A stretch of DNA of 24,950 nt from Pseudomonadota bacterium (GCA_026710525.1 JAPOQT010000124.1:1-24950); one strand, 5' to 3'; counted from the stretch's first letter, positions 15,923 to 24,950 are shown. Numbers and translations: made by a program. Notes: a model not told the origin generated them from the sequence alone.

Positions 15923-16624
15923 TTAAGGCCCTTTACTATTAGGGCTTGACTCGTGAGTTCTTTGACGGATCATATTTGTCACAATTTGTGTCGTTTGATC
16001 ATGATCTAAGGGACCAACGACTTTGGTGTAAACATGGGAATTTTCGTTAATAAAAAGAGTTTCAGGGACTCCGGTCACTCCATAATCAATCGACATTCTA
16101 TCTTGAGAGTCATAGGCAATCAAATAGGTTTTACCAGATTTTTTAGCGTGTTCCTTTGCATAGACCGGGTCATCATGAAGAACCACACCCATCACCACGA
16201 AGTTATCTTGTTTGTAGGTTTGCCAAAGACTCTCGAGTAGTGGGCTTTCCTCGGCACAAGAATCACACCAACTAGCCCAGAAATTAATCACAGTTATTTT
16301 ACCACGGAGATCCTGCAAAGAGACGTGTGGTTTTTGATCTGACAACGTTGTTGTCTTTAGATAACTCAGTTCATCGGGGGCAAAGAGAATCTCAAGACGA
16401 AAATGTTTAGCCGCTAATTTCCCAAAAGAGTCTTGCCAAGGGGCATCACTACCACCAAGGGGACCTCGACTCACTGATATCCACAAAAAGACACAGCCTA
16501 ACATGGTGGCTATGAAAAGTAGGGCAGTAGGCAAGATGATTTTGAGTTGAGAGACAAGGTTTTTTTCGACCATACATGTACTCTTAGGGATAAAAATTGA
16601 TGGCTTCACGGTGGAGAAGAACAA
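15923..16624 (-). CDS. ccmG: Membrane-anchored TlpA/CcmG-type thiol-disulfide oxidoreductase
   Basis: N-terminal TM, 'GKITVINFWASWCDSCAEE' CxxC, 'YGVTGVPETLFI' cis-Pro loop, and position downstream of ccmA-E. The ccmG name rests on context. Confidence 0.7.
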   Translation of the reverse strand: MFFSTVKPSIFIPKSTCMVEKNLVSQLKIILPTALLFIATMLGCVFLWISVSRGPLGGSDAPWQDSFGKLAAKHFRLEILFAPDELSYLKTTTLSDQKPHVSLQDLRGKITVINFWASWCDSCAEESPLLESLWQTYKQDNFVVMGVVLHDDPVYAKEHAKKSGKTYLIAYDSQDRMSIDYGVTGVPETLFINENSHVYTKVVGPLDHDQTTQIVTNMIRQRTHESSPNSKGP

Positions 16625-16880
16625 GCCTATTAAAAGACGAGACTCTTGAGTAGGTTGTTTTAGCTAAGTGTAAATAAAAAGCGTTATAGGTTCTTAAGTG
16701 CTCAATTTTCACAAGGCTATGTTACCGAGACATGCTGGTAGGACTATCTCCGTGAATGATTTATGGCGCCACTCTTCATACAAAATCAGGGTTATCACAA
16801 CCAATATGTTGGCCTATGACCACAAGAAGGACTTTTTTATCCATCAGGATACTCTCAGGGTGCGGTCAAGATTTTACGCC

Positions 16881-16917
16881 ATCATTATCGTATCTGATAT
16901 ATCAGATACGTAATGAT
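16881..16917. repeat. 22-bp perfect palindrome extended to about 37 bp with one bulge
   Basis: CGTATCTGATATATCAGATACG (16889-16910) equals its own reverse complement, flanked by ATCATTA(T) and TAATGAT. Confidence 0.9.
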
Positions 16918-17173
16918 AGTAGCATATAGTAAATGGATATTTATGCAAAACAGTATCTCAAGTGGTCAAGTAAGATCATAAGCAGGGCCAACTTTTGCCC
17001 TTGAAAATATTGGTGTCAGAATGACGATGAGTCACTCTTTCAGTAAAAATAACCCCAAGCCTCTCTTTAAAATTCTCTTACGGTGTTCGTTCGCTTTGTG
17101 ACTTGAGTAAAAACCAAAGTAATTTGATTGTGGTAGAACAGGGTAGTATGACTTGTTTGCCAGTGAGTTACTG

Positions 17174-17722
17174 TCACTGGAGGAGAGATTTTTTCAGTAG
17201 CTCTTGGTCCATAGTTTTGTGGCTGTCTGGTTTCACATACTCTTCTGAGTGTTTTACCATTAACCTAGTCGCATTAAATTCATCGCCTTGCTCACTGATT
17301 TTTCCTTCCAAGACAACCCCAGATCCCTCTTTAAACATATCAGGTAGTAGACCATGATAGTTCACATGGACCTGGGTATCTTCGAGGTTAGTGAGAACAA
17401 AAGAAACCGTGAGAGAGTCAGGAGCAGTTATTAATGAGTCCACTGCCACCATGCCACCAACTCGAATCGTTTGATTTTGTAAATCATATGCCCTCGCCTT
17501 GGCCTCAGATGGGGTGAGGAAATACACCGTGTTTTTTTGTAATTCTAATCCCATAAAAATAGCCATGATGATCCCACAGGCGACAAAAACCCAAATTACT
17601 TTATCAGGTTTTTTTGAGGCTTTTTGACTCCGAGAGCGAGGTTTTGCTTCTTGTAACGAAGGGGGCGGAGATGGATGGTTTTGATGATTATGTTGGGTCA
17701 TGATCAACCTTTTGTGTGCCAT
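17174..17722 (-). CDS. ccmE: Cytochrome c maturation heme chaperone CcmE (true start may be ATG at 17701)
   Basis: 'VYFLTPSE', 'IRVGGMV', 'YHGLLPDMFKEGSGVVLEG' and the heme-binding 'KHSEEY' (HxxxY). Confidence 0.93.
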   Translation of the reverse strand: MAHKRLIMTQHNHQNHPSPPPSLQEAKPRSRSQKASKKPDKVIWVFVACGIIMAIFMGLELQKNTVYFLTPSEAKARAYDLQNQTIRVGGMVAVDSLITAPDSLTVSFVLTNLEDTQVHVNYHGLLPDMFKEGSGVVLEGKISEQGDEFNATRLMVKHSEEYVKPDSHKTMDQELLKKSLLQ

Positions 17723-17840
17723 AACTGTTGAGTCGCTGACTTACCAGCCAACAAAAAATCATATAACCCAAAAGAGTGGCAAAAGCAATGCCATAGGCTA
17801 ACAAAATAAAGACATAAGCATTCCACTGTTCGTACATCAT
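17688..17840 (-). CDS. ccmD: Heme exporter protein CcmD-like small membrane protein; not in the ORF track
   Basis: Manual translation MMYEQWNAYVFILLAYGIAFATLLGYMIFCWLVSQRLNSYGTQKVDHDPT* (50 aa). 'YVFILLAYG' resembles the CcmD 'YVWxAYG' motif, and the ORF sits exactly between ccmC and ccmE. Confidence 0.72.
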   Translation of the reverse strand: MMYEQWNAYVFILLAYGIAFATLLGYMIFCWLVSQRLNSYGTQKVDHDPT

Positions 17841-17849
17841 GTGACCAAT

Positions 17850-18572
17850 TTACTGCGGTTGAACGTTTGGCGGGGTCTTGAAAGTATTGAAAAACAGGCG
17901 TTGTAATTCATCTTCACGATTCAATAAATAATAACGCCAGGCAACTAACCATAATGACAGGGCGATAGTAGAGATTATACAGAGATAAAGAAGTCCTGCA
18001 ATTTCCGGAGCCATAGTAGCACCATCAGAGCGAAATAAACTCGGTGGTTGATGCAGAGTTCGCCACCATGACACACTTTTATAGATGATCGGAATATCAA
18101 CGGCGATCAGTATACTGAGAGTGGCACAAACTCGTACTCGAGAATCTGTGCGTTCAAGAGAGCTCCAGATCAATAAATAAGCAACCTGAAGCAGGGCGAG
18201 GAGAAAAGTAGTGGTTAGTCTTGCATCCCAAGTCCACCAAACCCCCCAAGTTGGTCGTCCCCAAAGGGAACCTGTTAGGAGAGTGATACAAGTAAACAGG
18301 AAAGCGACCTCACAAATAGCTTTACCCAGAAAAATCAGGCTGCTTTTCGGTTGACGAATATTCCAAATACCTTGGGCCATCAGTAAGAATGACAACAAAA
18401 AAGAGGTTAAGGCACTGGAGACGTGGATGTAGAGAATACGATAAACATCTCCCTGATGCTTTTCAGAAGTAGCTCCCAGTATCCCGTAAAGCATTAAACC
18501 GACAAATAGGGTTACCACTAAGACACCTACCATCCTGTAGGATCTTAATGTTTTTGGTAATTTAGAGATCAT
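17850..18572 (-). CDS. ccmC: Heme exporter/delivery protein CcmC
   Basis: WWD motif 'WGRPTWGVWWTWDARLT' and flanking histidines 'LYIHV' and 'RTLHQ'. Confidence 0.95.
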   Translation of the reverse strand: MISKLPKTLRSYRMVGVLVVTLFVGLMLYGILGATSEKHQGDVYRILYIHVSSALTSFLLSFLLMAQGIWNIRQPKSSLIFLGKAICEVAFLFTCITLLTGSLWGRPTWGVWWTWDARLTTTFLLALLQVAYLLIWSSLERTDSRVRVCATLSILIAVDIPIIYKSVSWWRTLHQPPSLFRSDGATMAPEIAGLLYLCIISTIALSLWLVAWRYYLLNREDELQRLFFNTFKTPPNVQPQ

Positions 18573-18588
18573 AACTCATCATTAATGG

Positions 18589-19284
18589 TTAAGTATTATC
18601 CATGGTGTTAAACAACAATAAGCTGAGACAAAAAAAGAATCCAGCCATACAAGCAGGCAGAATAATAGGTGCTATCGAGTTACTCATAACGACCTCGAAG
18701 TTATGCCATATTACCTTAGAAGATTGTAAAGATACAATGGTGAGTGGGGTTGCGAGGGGGAAATAGATTAAAGGAAAGAGTAAAGAATTATCTCGATCAT
18801 ATGTGGTTAATAAACCACAGAGAATACCCAGGGGAGTGAGACCAAAGACATACACGGCTAACGACAGTCCCAGGGTGAGCATAAGTTCAAGATCTAGGGT
18901 TAAGCCGAGGAAATGACTGAGTAGCCAAGTGAGTAGTAGTGATGACGTGACAGCAAAGATCAGGATAGGGCAAGTACATGACACAAATATAAGATGATGA
19001 TTTCGCGGCAAAATCATCAGGGTTTCGAGGGTCCTGTCGATGAAAAAATTGGCAAAGATGCGCATAAAAAACCAGGAGAGAGTAATGAGAGTGATGATAA
19101 AACTCAAACCAACGTAGAGATCTCGAAGTGGGGGCCCTGAGAGATTTTCCGTAGCAAGTGCGCAGAGAATGACTAAGCTGATACCAAACATTAAAGCTGA
19201 GATAGCTTGCTCTTTTTGACCAAGGGTGCTGCTGATAAAAAAAAGGAGCAGCTGTTTTAGTTCATGTGTGAGAGGATGAGTCAT
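18589..19284 (-). CDS. ccmB: ABC transporter permease CcmB (diverged)
   Basis: About six TM segments, 'DRTLETLMI' (cf. DGtLE), 'LLFPLIYFPLATP' (cf. LLLPlL.lPL.iP). It overlaps ccmA by 4 nt and precedes ccmC. Confidence 0.75.
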   Translation of the reverse strand: MTHPLTHELKQLLLFFISSTLGQKEQAISALMFGISLVILCALATENLSGPPLRDLYVGLSFIITLITLSWFFMRIFANFFIDRTLETLMILPRNHHLIFVSCTCPILIFAVTSSLLLTWLLSHFLGLTLDLELMLTLGLSLAVYVFGLTPLGILCGLLTTYDRDNSLLFPLIYFPLATPLTIVSLQSSKVIWHNFEVVMSNSIAPIILPACMAGFFFCLSLLLFNTMDNT

Positions 19285-19907
19285 AACATTGATGGTTGAA
19301 AATCAGATAAATTGATGGTGTGGCTGGTGAGACTAGTGAAAACATTTGTGTGGGAGGTGTATAACACCATGCCACCAGAGGCTAAGTGTTTCATAATAAG
19401 TTGCTGCTGTAATGCGATGCCTTGTTGATCAAGGCCATGGGTGGGTTCATCCAGAAGCCAAAGAGCTCTTTTTTGCACTTCTAGCTTGGCACAAGCCAGC
19501 CTTTTTTTCATTCCGGTGGAAAACATCCCAACATTCAGAGTGTTTTGTAGGTAAGGATGACTGAGGCCCCACTTAGTAAGAAGATTGGCTATGTTGATCG
19601 TATCAGAATAATGAGTAAAGAACTTTAGGTTGTTCTGGGCACTGAAATGATAGAAAAATCCAGGAGACTCAGCGGGTAAGAAAGACGTGTTGGCTTGAAA
19701 ATATTTTATATCAGTCTTATGAAACAGGGAAGCTTCGGTGCATGATAAATCTAGGAGTCCCATCAAACCTCTGAGTAACGTTGTTTTGCCGACGCCGTTC
19801 TCACCCCTTAAATGACACATTTCACCAGGTTTAATTTCAAAAGAGAGGTTGGTGAATAAAGGCTGGTCTCGTTGATAACTCCAGGCAATATTGCGAGCGA
19901 TGAACAT
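19281..19907 (-). CDS. ccmA: ABC ATPase CcmA
   Basis: Walker A GENGVGKTT, signature-like FSTGMKKR, Walker B 'LWLLDEP', and 'GGMVLYTSH' end typical of CcmA. Confidence 0.87.
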   Translation of the reverse strand: MFIARNIAWSYQRDQPLFTNLSFEIKPGEMCHLRGENGVGKTTLLRGLMGLLDLSCTEASLFHKTDIKYFQANTSFLPAESPGFFYHFSAQNNLKFFTHYSDTINIANLLTKWGLSHPYLQNTLNVGMFSTGMKKRLACAKLEVQKRALWLLDEPTHGLDQQGIALQQQLIMKHLASGGMVLYTSHTNVFTSLTSHTINLSDFQPSML

Positions 19908-19910
19908 GGC

Positions 19911-21521
19911 TTAATCTCCTGATTGTGGCTGGTAGATATTGGCGGGCTGTGTTTGGGGTAATCGCCGATAGAAAGGGTAGGTCACAGTATGAGAGCTGTT
20001 AGGAGCTAAGGTGATAAAACTCACGGTTTGTTTTTTTTGCTTGAAGCGGGTGCTTGTTTTTATCGATTCATAGGAAACAAGCTGGTATTCACCTGGGAGT
20101 AACATAAGGTTACGTTCCTTGCTGTCACCAAGATGACTCGAGTTGTGAATCGAGTTAGGGAAACCTTGGCGTGTATTGTCATCTAACACTTCTAAGCGAA
20201 TGAGCTCGGTTGCTCGATTGTTTTGGAAAGTGACTTTTGGTGTTAATGTGAGTGAGCCGAGAACAACTTCTTTGTGTTGTCCTGGTCGTGCGTTAACAGC
20301 TTGCTTAATACCGTGAGCACTATGTAGTTGTACGAGAATTTTTTTGGCAAAAAATAGTATCGGAACGCCAACCGAGCCTTGAGTTGGTTCATCAGTTATT
20401 GATTCGTACAGGGTGAGTCCTATTTTAGGACACAACTGTTGTTGTTGCCAAGTGCTGGCCTCTCGGGTGCACGGGGAATGGATAGTGATCGTATTGAGAG
20501 GAATAGTCAATTGTTTACCTGCTACCACAGAGACCTGAATTGTTTGATGACCACCAGTGAGCTTAATTTCATAGGTACCTGGTAGCAGAGGATAGGTTGT
20601 ATTGAGACGGAGGGTGTGGTGTGTTTGCTCAGTAGGGGATCTTAGGGAAAAAGTCGGCGGCTCAGCATTGAAGCGGGTCACATAGTCTAGTGGTGTTTTA
20701 GCTGGTGTTGCCACCCTTAGTGCGCCAAGGGTAATTTCTTGGGGAGTTTGTGCCTCAAGAGTAACGGATTTTGTGCTGCCATTCACAGCGATCCGGTATT
20801 CACCTGGTAAGAAGTAAATCCATCGCGCTACCGGTAGTCCCGCTGTCATAGTGATACTTGCCTTGTCTTGACTGAGAAAAAACTTGGTTTTTTCGTTATT
20901 CGCTGTGTTAATTCGAAGGGCAGCTAGATCAATATGAGTGCTCCTTTCAGAGAGATCTAAGGTCACAGTGAGAGGCATCATATGGATAAAAATCTGATCA
21001 ATATTTGAGAGTAGATACAGCTTAAAAATACTAGTCAGTTTTTGGCTAAAAACAGGGCTACCAAACCTTTCACAGAGGATCTGAAACATCCCATCCTCGC
21101 CGTCATAATCAACGGGGGGTTGATGAAAAGTGAGTTGTTGTAAGGTGAGCTCTTGAGTGTGTCCTTTTTTTACGGTAACACTGGCATGTGAGCAGTCAGC
21201 TAATATGAGATATTTCCCTGGGGATACGAGTAAACCAGGAGAACCGAAGATGTCCGAGGATACTTCAATGCTCTTAAATAGCTCATGGCTACCCCTGTTA
21301 GTGGTGAGCGCCCTTAGTTTGGTAATAAAATTTTGTTCACGTTTATAAATAGAAAGACGATGATAGGACTGACGAGCCGAGCTGTTATCCGCTAATTTAA
21401 TAGAGATATAGCTCTCTCTTGTTGTGATAGAACAGCCTGGGAGTAGTGGCGCGAGGAGAGCGAGATAAATAGCTAGGCGTCTGAGCCAACTGCTGAGATG
21501 TGGTAATAAAATCTGTGTCAT
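19911..21521 (-). CDS. Unrecognised lipoprotein with repeated 'PGxY' beta-rich modules
   Basis: Lipobox LPG|C at Cys30; four motifs VSPGKY, FLPGEY, LLPGTY, LLPGEY; stop codon 3 nt before the ccmA start. Confidence 0.75.
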   Translation of the reverse strand: MTQILLPHLSSWLRRLAIYLALLAPLLPGCSITTRESYISIKLADNSSARQSYHRLSIYKREQNFITKLRALTTNRGSHELFKSIEVSSDIFGSPGLLVSPGKYLILADCSHASVTVKKGHTQELTLQQLTFHQPPVDYDGEDGMFQILCERFGSPVFSQKLTSIFKLYLLSNIDQIFIHMMPLTVTLDLSERSTHIDLAALRINTANNEKTKFFLSQDKASITMTAGLPVARWIYFLPGEYRIAVNGSTKSVTLEAQTPQEITLGALRVATPAKTPLDYVTRFNAEPPTFSLRSPTEQTHHTLRLNTTYPLLPGTYEIKLTGGHQTIQVSVVAGKQLTIPLNTITIHSPCTREASTWQQQQLCPKIGLTLYESITDEPTQGSVGVPILFFAKKILVQLHSAHGIKQAVNARPGQHKEVVLGSLTLTPKVTFQNNRATELIRLEVLDDNTRQGFPNSIHNSSHLGDSKERNLMLLPGEYQLVSYESIKTSTRFKQKKQTVSFITLAPNSSHTVTYPFYRRLPQTQPANIYQPQSGD

Positions 21522-21675
21522 TATAAGTTGTCACCACCACGGTGCAAGGGTGATATGATACACTGACAGGATCACGTTTTATAGGCACGTATCTTTGGAT
21601 AGAAGATTATCTAGTATTGAGTTAGTTTTGTTGTCACGTTAAGAAAGATCAAAAGATCAAGTAAGATAGGTCGTA

Positions 21676-22800
21676 ATGAGCCAGCCCAGTCCCCCACATA
21701 CTCCAACACAGGATAGTCAGCAAGTTGATCGAGAGCAACACATTATTGAATTGAAACAATTAGTTGATCATATTAATTCAGGGACTAAGTTCTCCCGAGA
21801 TGAACATCTAGATCATCTTAAACTACTCCATGATTTTGAATGCTGGCATCATTATTTCACCAAAGTTGACCTGTTGTTAGCAGATGTTGATCAAAGGCAA
21901 GCTAACTCTATTCTCCAAGATAGTCTATCAGTTTGTTTCAATTTTATTGAAGACAAGGCAATGGCTGAAAAGTATTTGCTCAGAGCCTTACAGCTAGTGG
22001 ATATTTCTTTTCCTGAATTTTGGCGGGTCATGATTTTGAAGCCAATGAAGATTAAAGATTTTGCCCTTGAGGCTTCTTTACTTGAGTCGATAGTTCCCCA
22101 TTCTCAGGGTGAATTCTTGGAGGAGGTCTTAGCACGACTGGCGATACTTTACGAAGAAAAACTGTATTCAGAAGACCATTTACTTAAAACCTTGTCTCGA
22201 CTCATAGAAGCGAACCCGCGTAACCATAAAGCCTTAATTTTTTATAAAAACTTTTATTCACAGCGACATCATTGGGCGAAGGTTGAAGGGTTCCTAAAGA
22301 CGTTAATTGATGAGTTGGCAGAAACATCAGAAGAGTATTTTTACCGTCTTGAATTAGCTAAGATCTATTTGCATTTTCTCGATCAACCTGAAGAAGCAAC
22401 AGAGATTATGTCAGGGGTGACGAGTGATGCTGGTTTTGAGATGATTAAAGTTAAGTTTATGTTATTTTTTCATGCGGGTGAGTTTCGACAAGGGATTGAT
22501 ACTCTGAAGGTCCTTGAACAATTAGCTACGGATGGGAAGCAACTAGCCAATGTTTATTTCCACTATGCGACATCTTATGCCAGTCTCAATAATCATGCAA
22601 AATCTTTTGCTTATTTTGAAAAGTCATTACAGAAAGATGTGAGCATGTATGTGATTCGAAAGTACTGGCGATCGTCGCTACAGTACCGTAATTTCCATGG
22701 TATTCTTTCGACACTTGAGTATATTACCAAGATCACAGAATCATCAAAGCAAAAAACCAAGGCTCTTACGTTAATCAATAAGTATCTTGGCCACCTGTAA
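21676..22800 (+). CDS. Alpha-helical TPR-like protein
   Basis: Repeating helical patterns 'LARLAILYEEK', 'RLIEANPRNHKAL', 'RLELAKIYLHFLDQPEEA', 'NVYFHYATSY...AYFEKSLQKD'. No signal peptide seen. Confidence 0.7.
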   Translation: MSQPSPPHTPTQDSQQVDREQHIIELKQLVDHINSGTKFSRDEHLDHLKLLHDFECWHHYFTKVDLLLADVDQRQANSILQDSLSVCFNFIEDKAMAEKYLLRALQLVDISFPEFWRVMILKPMKIKDFALEASLLESIVPHSQGEFLEEVLARLAILYEEKLYSEDHLLKTLSRLIEANPRNHKALIFYKNFYSQRHHWAKVEGFLKTLIDELAETSEEYFYRLELAKIYLHFLDQPEEATEIMSGVTSDAGFEMIKVKFMLFFHAGEFRQGIDTLKVLEQLATDGKQLANVYFHYATSYASLNNHAKSFAYFEKSLQKDVSMYVIRKYWRSSLQYRNFHGILSTLEYITKITESSKQKTKALTLINKYLGHL

Positions 22801-22806
22801 TGTCTG

Positions 22807-23928
22807 TTGTCGGATCAACCACGATCATCGAGTAGAGTTGTGACCTTTGTTCATATGCCCTTACCTAAAAATGTGACAGCAGTGCCAGACTTCTATGGGG
22901 CACTGAGGGCTCTTGATAATAAGATGACAGTCCTTCATCCAGAATACTCTTTTGTTTCTTGGTTAGGGCCTCATGATGAGCAGGAAGGACTTAGTTATAT
23001 TGCGGGCGACCTAGTTCATATCAACCAGCATAGGCAGAGTATGGCGATGAATGTTGTTGATGGAAGTCAGTTAGCTACCTACTCTTTTTATCAGAATTAT
23101 TTGAGGGCAACAAACAAGGTTTCCTATGGTCATCTCTATGGTGGTTATAGTGGCTCATGGGATAGCTTAGCAGAGAAGTATTACGTTCGTCTATTGCTAG
23201 CGGTTGATGCTCAACTACTCAGTCGTTACCTTGATTTTACTAGTAGTCTTCTTAGTCATGATTTGAATAGTAGTTTGTTAAGACCAAGTCAATCGGTTGC
23301 TCCTTATGTTGTTTTAAATGGTAGTGGTGAAGCTTACTTGTTTCATTCGACCGAGAGTCATATGAAGCATTGTCGGAGTAAATTGCAAGCTTTGATTCGA
23401 CAAAATCATAAGAAGAAAATCACCATCAATGCCTATATCGATAAGTTCTTTTTTCCTCAAGGGATGACTTTAGGGGGGATGCTCCCGCCATCTCTTGGGG
23501 CTAAATCCCGTCACGATTACCACGTTTTTCCCAAAAATACCAATGAAGAAACCAGGTTCCACCCCATGTCATTTCAGCAACAAATCAACTCAACATGCTG
23601 GCATAAGGTGGATCAATGGTTTGAGGCGGTGAAAAAAACTTTGGCATCTGTTCAGAGCAGAGGACAGTCGTTACCGATACAATTATTTGTTGGTACTCGT
23701 AGTTGTCTTTTAGATTATTATTATTATGAGCAACTGGGTGATATTATTGACAAGGCTAAATTTAGGCAGTGGCATCTGAAAAAGTGGTATCTTGGCTACG
23801 ATCCATGGGGTTATTTTTTCTCTTACTTGCATCATGCCTACGGGAAGACAGAACATGGTTGTGCCTATGTTAACAGCCACCTTGTTGGCACAGGAGAGAT
23901 ATTAACTTGTCATCCAAGAGAGACGTAA
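22807..23928 (+). CDS. Highly diverged thiolase-superfamily (FadA/FadI- or FabH-like) protein lacking canonical catalytic residues
   Basis: Ordered motif echoes by eye: 'VVTFVHMPLPK' ~ VVIVDGVRTPFGK; 'LYGGYSG' ~ xAC(S/A)G; 'LLLAVDAQLLSR' ~ VVVAGGxExMSR; 'LNGSGEAYLF' ~ LNDGAAAVLL; 'LGYDPWG' ~ LGHPxG; 'VGTG' ~ xGGG near the C-terminus. Confidence 0.5.
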   Translation: MSDQPRSSSRVVTFVHMPLPKNVTAVPDFYGALRALDNKMTVLHPEYSFVSWLGPHDEQEGLSYIAGDLVHINQHRQSMAMNVVDGSQLATYSFYQNYLRATNKVSYGHLYGGYSGSWDSLAEKYYVRLLLAVDAQLLSRYLDFTSSLLSHDLNSSLLRPSQSVAPYVVLNGSGEAYLFHSTESHMKHCRSKLQALIRQNHKKKITINAYIDKFFFPQGMTLGGMLPPSLGAKSRHDYHVFPKNTNEETRFHPMSFQQQINSTCWHKVDQWFEAVKKTLASVQSRGQSLPIQLFVGTRSCLLDYYYYEQLGDIIDKAKFRQWHLKKWYLGYDPWGYFFSYLHHAYGKTEHGCAYVNSHLVGTGEILTCHPRET

Positions 23929-23958
23929 CGGGGACACCATTAGCAGAAAGGTCCTCAC

Positions 23959-24950
23959 GTGGCAAAAACAACCCAAAGTAAATCAGAATGCTGGGAGCTG
24001 AACCGAGATGGTAAGCAGCATTATTATCTCGCTGTGCCAGACATGGTTTCGTTTTATCTGCCTTCTGAATCATGGCGGGTTTTTCAAACAACGGTTCGTC
24101 GTATTTTGGCTAACGACTCTCACTCCCTCAGTTTTGTCTGTTTTCAGCCAGCGAGAGATCAGCACCGACTTTTACTATCAGCCGGGTATTTACCAAGTAA
24201 GCAAGCAGCCCATTTGAGTGAGTTAAGGCATTTCTTCCGCTTTCTTTACGCGCAGAGAGATCGTTTAACATTTTGGCTAGCTTCATCGGTGACTGACTCT
24301 TTTTTTGAGTTAATGCTCTGTTGTCAGAAAATTTGGTTTTATCAACCAACTGTGTTTCTTGGTTTTCCTGAATGGGAGAGGGGTTTTCCGCCTTTAGGTG
24401 GTGTTTGTGAATTAAGCTGGCATGCAGGAGATCTGAAAAAAAGCTTTTGGCAGAAAAACAAGATATTCCGACCGTGGATGGCATCTGAATCAACAGCCCT
24501 TGGCCTTGAATGGATTGCAGAGCCCGTGTTTTATCAGTGGCTAAAAGAGCAACAGATGACCCCAGGTACTGAGGCAGGTCTTAAAACCAAGAGTCATTCG
24601 GTCGGTTACCCATTTCCTTGGATATCCTTATTATCAGGGCAGAAGGCGAATAAAGGCGGTTGTGTGGCAAAACCTGAGTGGTTAGCTGCCATCTTTAGTC
24701 AAAGTCCTAACATGAGGCCCCAGAAAAAAATAGTTCACTCATTTACGGAGGTATCATGGGATATTTTGTGGTACAGAAAAGACCAAGAGAACAGTCATAG
24801 TGATTATGATCACTGTCGTGATTTGCTCAATGTGTGGTCTGAGGTGTTACATTTGGGTGCTACCCCAAGTTCCTGTGATCAAGGAAATAGTCAGTTACTA
24901 TTCAGACACTTTGGTTCCGAGTCATCTTTGCTGTTAGATCATCAGGATCA
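23959..24950 (+). CDS. Degenerate crotonase-fold protein resembling the N-terminal enoyl-CoA hydratase domain of FadJ/FadB; partial, not in the ORF track
   Basis: GTG at 23959 with AGAAAGG upstream, open for 330 codons to the window edge. 'FFELMLCCQKIWFYQPTVFLGFPEWERGFPPLGG' matches the crotonase motif 'GLELALACxxR...LGLPEVxLGLLPGxGG'. Confidence 0.68.
   Translation, partial: MAKTTQSKSECWELNRDGKQHYYLAVPDMVSFYLPSESWRVFQTTVRRILANDSHSLSFVCFQPARDQHRLLLSAGYLPSKQAAHLSELRHFFRFLYAQRDRLTFWLASSVTDSFFELMLCCQKIWFYQPTVFLGFPEWERGFPPLGGVCELSWHAGDLKKSFWQKNKIFRPWMASESTALGLEWIAEPVFYQWLKEQQMTPGTEAGLKTKSHSVGYPFPWISLLSGQKANKGGCVAKPEWLAAIFSQSPNMRPQKKIVHSFTEVSWDILWYRKDQENSHSDYDHCRDLLNVWSEVLHLGATPSSCDQGNSQLLFRHFGSESSLLLDHQD

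Follow-up and report, generated by a model that had tools for sequence, protein, structure and literature searches.

A conserved gene trio of the Oligoflexales as a probable pseudo-enzyme derivative of the trifunctional enzyme of beta-oxidation

The contig JAPOQT010000124.1 of the Pseudomonadota assembly GCA_026710525.1 (24,950 nucleotides, hereafter the window) ends in three co-directional genes, at positions 21676 to 24950, for a tetratricopeptide repeat (TPR)-like protein, a protein with the predicted fold of a thiolase, and a protein related to the alpha subunits (FadB/FadJ) of the trifunctional enzyme (TFE) of beta-oxidation. We conclude that this unannotated trio is not a case of gene decay: it derives from the trifunctional enzyme as an ancient pseudo-enzyme that is under selection. 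It is well supported that a gene pair in the order thiolase, then alpha, underwent duplication before the Oligoflexales radiated; that the duplicated pair, judging from the residues found in the relevant alignment columns, lost the thiolase and dehydrogenase chemistry and the oxyanion hole of the hydratase, and gained new conserved residues; and that it has since been kept with the TPR gene under strong constraint. The trio probably has a new job. The reading that we favour, and hold to be rather likely, is that of a conserved operon-like module in which a TPR-type protein is combined with diverged paralogous copies of the TFE beta and alpha subunits, which have abandoned beta-oxidation for a non-catalytic or hydratase-only assembly.

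The sequence-only reading from which this study started had described three same-strand open reading frames (ORFs) spaced by 6 and 30 nucleotides, and they are present exactly where it placed them (Table 1). Throughout the text they are referred to as gene 1 (ORF1, protein P0001), gene 2 (ORF2, protein P0002, member of the P2 family) and gene 3 (ORF3, protein P0003, member of the P3 family); the genome of the window is G000, a genome of the same genus is G001, and the two together are the f1 genomes. For gene 2, public gene calls take an alternative GTG start at 22840. The window is the whole of contig C124 in a metagenome-assembled genome (MAG) of 1.82 Mb and 86% completeness, and gene 3 is therefore cut by the assembly and not by a mutation. 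The long uninterrupted frames and their orthologues place the trio far beyond chance. Scans with Pfam and NCBIfam gave no match for genes 2 and 3 and sub-threshold TPR matches only for gene 1; a promoter and terminator scan of positions 21400-24950 revealed no internal excess over shuffled sequences.

Table 1. Coordinates of the trio, of its sequence motifs and of the adjacent features in the window.
Feature	Position	Strand	Remarks
Gene 1, TPR-like protein, 374 residues	21676-22800	+	ATG start; first of the trio
Gene 2, predicted thiolase-fold protein without catalytic residues, 373 residues	22807-23928	+	TTG start
GYDP (G330-Y-D-P333) of gene 2	23794-23805	+	best conserved family motif, G-W-[H/N/S/Q]-P; from column counts
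Gene 3, FadB/FadJ-like N-terminal part, 330 codons	23959-24948, open to 24950	+	GTG start; runs off the contig without a stop
Crotonase (enoyl-CoA hydratase-like) core of gene 3	24034-24477	+	matches residues 15-160 of P0005; inside the hhalign match to FadB
D113-S-F-F-E117 of gene 3	24295-24309	+	counterpart of crotonase G-G-G-x-E; hhalign register GGGlE vs GSxFE
G135-F-P-E138 of gene 3	24361-24372	+	counterpart of crotonase G-x-P-E with the second catalytic Glu; from column counts; E in the window
Intergenic region, 154 nucleotides, divergent	21522-21675	.	precedes the TPR gene; here without the TetR gene of other families
Divergent neighbour, 536 residues, family-less	19911-21521	-	27-28% identical to a 533-residue protein of G036 (E 2e-37) and a 558-residue protein of G001 (E 2e-38)

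Folds and active-site positions of the three proteins

The P2 family is out of reach of most sequence comparisons. A word-index search of 5.8 billion proteins with P0002 recovered P0002 itself alone, and in a profile search of 1.84 billion representatives the family comprised 146 clusters, none longer than 401 residues and most of them of 300-370 residues, with the shorter ones looking like fragments. A Pfam scan of 110 members gave no match of note, the Thiolase_N and Thiolase_C profiles remaining unmatched, and the family profile found nothing among the PDB sequences. The relationship is instead seen at the level of structure. An AlphaFold2 model of gene 2 based on the 110-sequence family alignment (pLDDT 71.7, pTM 0.77, with 80 residues below pLDDT 50) was compared with 48,161 chains by means of VIA-align: rank 1 was E. 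coli FadI (8bnr_A, Z 12.0), with 285 residues aligned over the range 9-371, and ranks 2-19 were all thiolases or thiolase-like proteins (Z 8.3-11.6), such that the top 19 matches together covered residues 9-373. With Foldseek the top 50 matches in the PDB also belonged without exception to the thiolase superfamily, but they were weak (best E 5e-3, TM 0.36); the matches among the AFDB clusters, to thiolase-like proteins or DUF2875, were weak as well, and no annotated cluster came close. By this model, gene 2 would be a member of the thiolase superfamily at the level of the fold, with the five-layered alpha-beta-alpha-beta-alpha arrangement. Features from the ESM Atlas pointed to MACPF for P0002 (0.95, 171 features) and to the BREX protein BrxC for another member of the family; we rejected both as noise, as they are mutually inconsistent and do not fit the fold.

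The residues that define a degradative thiolase (FadA/FadI), that is the nucleophilic Cys, the catalytic His and the C-terminal Cys, cannot be recognized in gene 2, as far as the alignment tells. Cys stays below 20% in every column of the 110-sequence alignment, and thus there is no thiolase nucleophile in the P2 family; His reaches a maximum of 29%. The nucleophile loop, which follows the third strand of the N-terminal half (positions 113-120), is hypervariable and reads GYSGSWDS in the window. There is likewise no Cys near the C-terminal hairpin in the family, and the C-x-G-G-G motif with the acid/base Cys is missing. The best conserved motif (G in 104 of 109 sequences, W in 76, H in 32, P in 93) carries Asp at the His position in the window; its location in the fold suggests that it may be a relic of the Gly-His-Pro motif of the thiolase catalytic His. 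Conservation at the level of 90% or more is limited to two glycines, and no polar residue is conserved in more than about 80% of the sequences.

Gene 3 comprises the first 330 residues of a protein of about 600-690 residues (552-683 in the P3 members), and is 33% identical to the N-terminus of its 683-residue orthologue in G001, P0005. A P3 profile built from 8 members matched, at positions 83-190, the enoyl-CoA hydratase 2pbp (E 7e-8) and the FadJ entry 8bnu (E 2e-5) in the PDB, and hhalign of the 27-member P3 alignment with 11 canonical FadB/FadJ proteins of the order gave 98.5% (E 3e-15) over 188 crotonase columns. The C-terminal halves of P3 and FadB were colinear but only weakly similar (20.6%, E 1e-3, 360 columns), with the Rossmann GxGxxG motif opposite a P3 motif that ends in Pro-Pro, and a C-terminal G-F-P...G-P opposite the corresponding motif of FadB. 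When an AlphaFold model of P0005 (pLDDT 70.8) was searched with Foldseek, the top 50 matches were all TFE alpha or MFE1 chains, with E values down to 5e-13 over about 750-800 columns; they include human HADHA (6dv2), E. coli FadJ (6ysv), P. fragi FadB (1wdk) and the M. tuberculosis enzyme (4b3h). Single P3 members match ECH_1 below the gathering score, and match neither 3HCDH_N nor 3HCDH. Taken with the model, these comparisons suggest that gene 3 encodes a crotonase-domain protein with the five-domain architecture of TFE alpha, of about 700 residues. The description of genes 2 and 3 in the sequence-only reading as long, uninterrupted thiolase-like and hydratase-like remnants is thus borne out, by the fold for gene 2 and by the profile and the fold of the full-length orthologue for gene 3; structure searches led to thiolases and to TFE alpha or MFE1 chains, respectively, and not to unrelated folds.

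In the crotonase core, the column of the first catalytic Glu holds E in 22 and D in 5 of the 27 P3 members, and the first Gly column of the same motif G in 21 and D in 6; the Gly-Gly-Gly (GGG) of the oxyanion hole is replaced by D-S-F in the window and by G/D-S-x in the family, and the loop of the AGADI type is aligned to a non-conserved D...W stretch. The second motif, G-x-P-E, is better preserved (G 27/27, F/Y 27/27, P 24/27), with E in 19 members at the Glu position, A in 4, D in 2 and Q in 1. In 25 of 26 P3 members (full-length relatives) GxGxxG has given way to Pro-Pro, and the family has acquired several new invariant tryptophans. Judging from these relatives, the dehydrogenase part of P3 cannot bind nicotinamide adenine dinucleotide in the canonical way. 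The sequence beyond position 24950 had been singled out as the place to look for a GxGxxG dehydrogenase domain; as far as the relatives are concerned the motif is absent and Pro-Pro stands in its place, while the window's own C-terminal half was not recovered, the 3' half of gene 3 not being found on the other contigs of G000. The end of one of these contigs (C218:10024-10422; L106:1432-1902, minus strand) lies inside the C-terminal part of pyrF and is followed by a 356-residue ORF, as in G001. Because of this pyrF fragment, the ends of C124 and C218 probably flank one and the same gap of ~1.5 kb, in which gene 3 would have its 3' half and pyrF its 5' part.

Gene 1 has sub-threshold Pfam matches to TPR_8, TPR_12 and TPR_2 (for TPR_8, 21.5 bits versus a cut-off of 25.7), as do its orthologues, one of which, from Oligoflexus tunisiensis, bears the public name 'tetratricopeptide repeat protein'. 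Its product would be, by these sequence matches, a TPR-like all-helical protein; it is 37% identical to the syntenic protein of G001 and 30% identical (E 5e-25) to a protein of the genome G036; by tblastn, a homologue of gene 1 was found directly upstream of the thiolase-like gene in 12 of 12 loci.

Conservation of the trio across the order

The same three genes occur in the same order in G001, with identities to the window of 37%, 23% and 33%, and are followed there by pyrF, an exonuclease-like gene and ftsK. The usual arrangement, seen in 12 loci from many families, is TetR-TPR-P2-P3-pyrF; TPR-P2-P3 is present in every locus inspected, and across the order the homologue of P0003, of 550-690 residues, is always preceded by an ORF of 300-370 residues. 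The orthologues are thus syntenic in G001 and in every other family inspected, and the lack of synteny that the sequence-only reading had named as a refutation is not seen. In 26 loci the spacing between the P2 and P3 genes ranges from -82 to +11 nucleotides, with the 4-nucleotide overlap that is typical of translational coupling in 8 of the 26, and the operon often overlaps pyrF. With a thiolase-type gene tightly upstream of an alpha-type gene, the trio conforms to the fadIJ arrangement. Of 94 further genomes of the Oligoflexales, 60 were found to have a P2 gene, in one copy each, whereas none was found in 36 genomes from outside the order (other families of the class or phylum). The free-living O. 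tunisiensis Shr3 carries the same eroded genes (WP_141736594.1, WP_141736593.1, WP_141736592.1).

Two side observations concern the membership of these families. P0179, a P3 member with 39% identity to the O. tunisiensis protein, was deposited as part of a 'Chitinophagaceae bacterium' MAG; it probably comes from a mis-binned contig and is not a genuine case of the family beyond the Oligoflexales. Six P2 matches contain one in-frame stop each (G053:C6:3734-4738, G054:C706:17999-19027, G057:C42:3978-5030, G058:C505:5467-6489, G038:C45:59063-59923, G033:C204:89-961); these could be due to read-through into the end of the overlapping upstream TPR gene, to sequencing errors or to real disruptions.

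Canonical beta-oxidation genes exist elsewhere in the genome of the window, as the sequence-only reading had advised to check. Two separate pairs were found. Contig C185 has a thiolase fragment followed, 36 nucleotides on, by an 822-residue FadJ-like protein with strong matches to ECH_1, 3HCDH_N and 3HCDH (best NCBIfam match FadJ, 722 bits), which is the same thiolase-then-hydratase order that had been recognized in the trio as that of fadI-fadJ; contig C171 has a FadB-type gene followed by a 409-residue thiolase. Canonical thiolases are present in 16 of 16 related genomes, and canonical dehydrogenase domains in 15 of 16. The FadJ-like protein (G000:C185:1907-4375, L051, minus strand) is unusually long, owing to an insert of ~200 residues between the crotonase (14-210) and dehydrogenase (422-600) domains, and frames of 810-830 residues recur in its relatives.

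The strength of selection was gauged from the ratio of nonsynonymous to synonymous substitution rates (dN/dS), leaving out the G000-G001 pair, whose divergence is saturated (23-37% amino-acid identity). In two independent close genome pairs (dS about 0.2-0.25) dN/dS was 0.08-0.11 for P2, 0.11-0.12 for P3 and 0.14-0.26 for pyrF; in the closest Oligoflexus pair (dS 1.0-1.5) it was 0.031 for the TPR gene, 0.050 for P2, 0.066 for P3 and 0.041 for pyrF. Overall, the values for the trio (0.03-0.12) are similar to those for pyrF and not near 1, the value named in the sequence-only reading as a sign of neutral decay. The frames of the trio are intact in both f1 genomes despite their saturation-level divergence.

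Alternative explanations and probable function

Among the ways in which these observations could be explained, neutral decay or extreme drift, with the genes as remnants of a dying beta-oxidation operon in a genome-reduced, host-associated bacterium, is the one that we consider most improbable. The origin of the window does lend itself to such a reading: the sequencing runs that hold positions 21676-24950 belong to three studies of sponge metagenomes (52%, 34% and 15% of the sampled words), all of them of the DNA type and with no RNA run among the matches, and since they come from three such studies the organism is a recurrent sponge-associated lineage of the Oligoflexales. The MAG is small (1.8 Mb at 86% completeness), the orthologues of the trio in G000 and G001 are 23-37% identical versus about 60% for two housekeeping proteins, and the lineage of the window is without TetR and two neighbouring genes. 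However, the divergence of the trio between the two genomes is matched by that of the adjacent pyrF (31-36% identity for the fragment at the end of C218), and the trio is therefore not unusually relaxed in the sponge-associated lineage; moreover the frames are all intact, dN/dS is low, and most families of the order have the same eroded genes. Drift in a host-associated lineage, the alternative that had been left standing by the sequence-only reading, is not the explanation, because the free-living O. tunisiensis carries the eroded genes as well.

The favoured reading takes gene 2 to be a former thiolase, and several observations weigh against this or other parts of it. It is fold, size and gene order that point to the descent of gene 2 from a thiolase, and the alignment of the P2 family with the order's own thiolases by hhalign gave only 0.4%. 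Both hydratase Glu residues (E117 and E138) are kept in the window, and the first catalytic position is acidic in 27 of 27 P3 members, so that some crotonase chemistry is possible. The loss of GxGxxG is seen in relatives alone, as the C-terminal half of the window's own protein falls in the assembly gap. Thiolase-fold proteins without cysteines can be enzymes (the Ltp2 and Sal aldolases are among the matches of gene 2). Finally, the TetR gene is missing in the lineage of the window, and so are the outer-membrane protein-like and 251-residue genes of the divergent side, of which just the 533-residue homologue is kept.

One could accordingly propose that gene 2 is an unrelated alpha/beta protein whose model has converged on thiolase-like layers, leaving gene 3 as the only component that comes from the beta-oxidation machinery. 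The lack of any sequence or profile similarity to thiolases, the weak Foldseek scores (E 5e-3, TM 0.36) and the 80 poorly modelled residues are in line with this proposal; we nevertheless regard it as very unlikely, given that the top 19 of the 48,161-chain search are solely of the thiolase superfamily (Z 8.3-12, residues 9-373), and that a size of 300-370 residues and a place directly upstream of an alpha-like gene are just what the canonical thiolase-then-alpha pair of this genome shows.

The strongest competitor of the favoured reading is a pair of repurposed enzymes, in which the crotonase of gene 3 hydrates a coenzyme A (CoA) thioester or activates it in another way, and the Cys-less thiolase-fold protein cleaves a C-C bond (for example in a retro-aldol reaction, as does the steroid side-chain aldolase Ltp2-ChsH2), bypassing the dead dehydrogenase. 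Strong purifying selection is compatible with an enzyme, the acid at the first position is universal in P3 and the second Glu is kept in 19 of the 27, the window having both, and Cys-less thiolase-fold aldolases do occur among the structural matches (9myr, Z 9.6; 6ok1, Z 9.2). On the other hand, a family with two glycines above the 90% level and no polar residue above about 80% would be unusual for an enzyme, the oxyanion-hole GGG has become G/D-S-x, 4 members have Ala in place of the second Glu, and there is no DUF35-type partner in the cluster. On balance we deem this catalytic pair unlikely, though clearly less so than the two preceding explanations.

Comparison with known systems leads in the same directions. 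E. coli FadI/FadJ (8bnr, 6ysv), P. fragi FadBA (1wdk), the M. tuberculosis TFE (4b3h) and human HADHA/HADHB (6dv2) have the same two folds; among solved structures, gene 2 is closest to FadI (Z 12.0) and full-length P3 to the FadJ and HADHA chains, and FadI/FadJ share with the trio the order of thiolase and then alpha gene. In contrast to FadI/FadJ, gene 2 is without the nucleophilic Cys, the His and the second Cys, and gene 3 without GGG; the trio family has a conserved Pro-Pro for GxGxxG and conserved tryptophans of its own, and stays below every Pfam and NCBIfam threshold; and its TPR gene upstream is obligatory, unlike in the FadI/FadJ operons. SCP2-thiolase-like proteins (5ab4, 4egv), together with the Ltp2-ChsH2(DUF35) and Sal-Shy aldolases (6ok1, 9myr), match gene 2 with Z 9.2-9.6. 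All these proteins are without the canonical cysteines of thiolases and are nonetheless maintained. They keep conserved polar catalytic or ligand residues, whereas conservation in P2 is of the Gly/Pro/Trp type only, and the aldolases pair with DUF35 or MaoC-type hydratases, whereas P2 pairs with TFE-alpha-like and TPR proteins. A precedent for a thiolase-like layered fold that serves as a non-catalytic protein-binding adaptor is the lipase adaptor Tla3/DUF2875 of type VI secretion (8yz3), which matches gene 2 with Z 8.2 and occupies ranks 1 and 14 in the AFDB search; its match to gene 2 is, however, weaker and partial, and there are no type VI secretion genes or lipase effector near the trio.

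Returning to the favoured reading of a repurposed TFE derivative, the module would no longer perform beta-oxidation, and its products would still assemble like the trifunctional enzyme, as an alpha/beta complex that is non-catalytic or at most hydratase-only. We infer such an assembly because of the ancestry and tight coupling of the genes. Complex prediction for the P3 and P2 proteins of O. tunisiensis gave a median score of 0.01, with 0.69 in one of three runs. The assembly may bind an acyl-CoA-like ligand or serve as a scaffold, with the TPR protein as its protein-protein adaptor; in most lineages the module would be under the control of the conserved TetR repressor and co-transcribed with pyrF, and the copy in the window would be a fast-evolving member from a sponge-associated lineage. 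The gene context lends this reading weak support, as TetR scores best with the BetI and FadR models, if far below their cut-offs, and pyrF is often overlapped by the operon. The suggestion of the sequence-only reading that the genes form a repurposed non-catalytic complex rather than decaying ones stands as regards selection (dN/dS, synteny); the formation of a complex is probable, and such a complex may not be wholly non-catalytic, with the hydratase Glu residues kept. Going one step further, one may tentatively picture a machine of the Oligoflexales in which the TFE subunits, duplicated together and stripped of thiolase and dehydrogenase chemistry, were coupled to a TPR adaptor and, co-transcribed with pyrF and controlled by the highly conserved TetR, form a housekeeping sensor or scaffold, for example one that regulates envelope or nucleotide metabolism in response to acyl-CoA or lipids; this is possible, if rather doubtful.

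If true, this would be the first example of an entire multi-enzyme complex of beta-oxidation that lives on as pseudo-enzymes. Pseudo-enzymes usually turn up singly, and here the two partners of a well-studied metabolic complex seem to have been co-opted jointly, in a trio kept through the whole history of the order under selection as strong as that on an essential biosynthetic gene. Full-text literature on beta-oxidation in the Oligoflexia and on thiolase/hydratase pseudo-enzymes was searched and no description of such a module was found. In public databases, the P2 and P3 proteins of O. tunisiensis are each a 'hypothetical protein' (RefSeq), some P3 members are called 'enoyl-CoA hydratase/carnithine racemase' (IMG), and no member has a precomputed Pfam domain. 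Families that are invisible to Pfam and NCBIfam show how conserved biology can be hidden behind extreme sequence divergence, and the trio offers annotation pipelines a clean example of the rescue of orphan genes at the level of the fold. Since O. tunisiensis Shr3 is a cultured host, the role of the TFE shell is directly testable.

Neighbouring genes

The 536-residue divergent neighbour (Table 1) has no Pfam match, and 10 further loci have its homologue at the corresponding place. In most Oligoflexales a divergent cluster lies beside the trio (L043:10778-14315 of G036, with equivalents in L044-L052), which encodes an outer-membrane protein-like product of 383 residues, a 251-residue protein and a family-less 533-residue one; the 383-residue product is an outer-membrane beta-barrel protein with weak matches to PorV/PorQ and FadL-like proteins. 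The TetR gene upstream of the TPR gene (L043:9984-10658, minus strand, and its equivalents) is by far the most conserved of the whole gene neighbourhood, with 62-88% identity between families; its best NCBIfam models are BetI and the FadR of the Bacillus type, far below their cut-offs. The search for a TetR homologue in G000 (86% complete) and G001 (82% complete) found none. Beyond the 536-residue gene the window holds a row of genes for the cytochrome c maturation system I (15923-19907, minus strand), consisting of a CcmA-like ATP-binding cassette ATPase, CcmB, a CcmC-like protein, CcmE and the thioredoxin-like CcmG.

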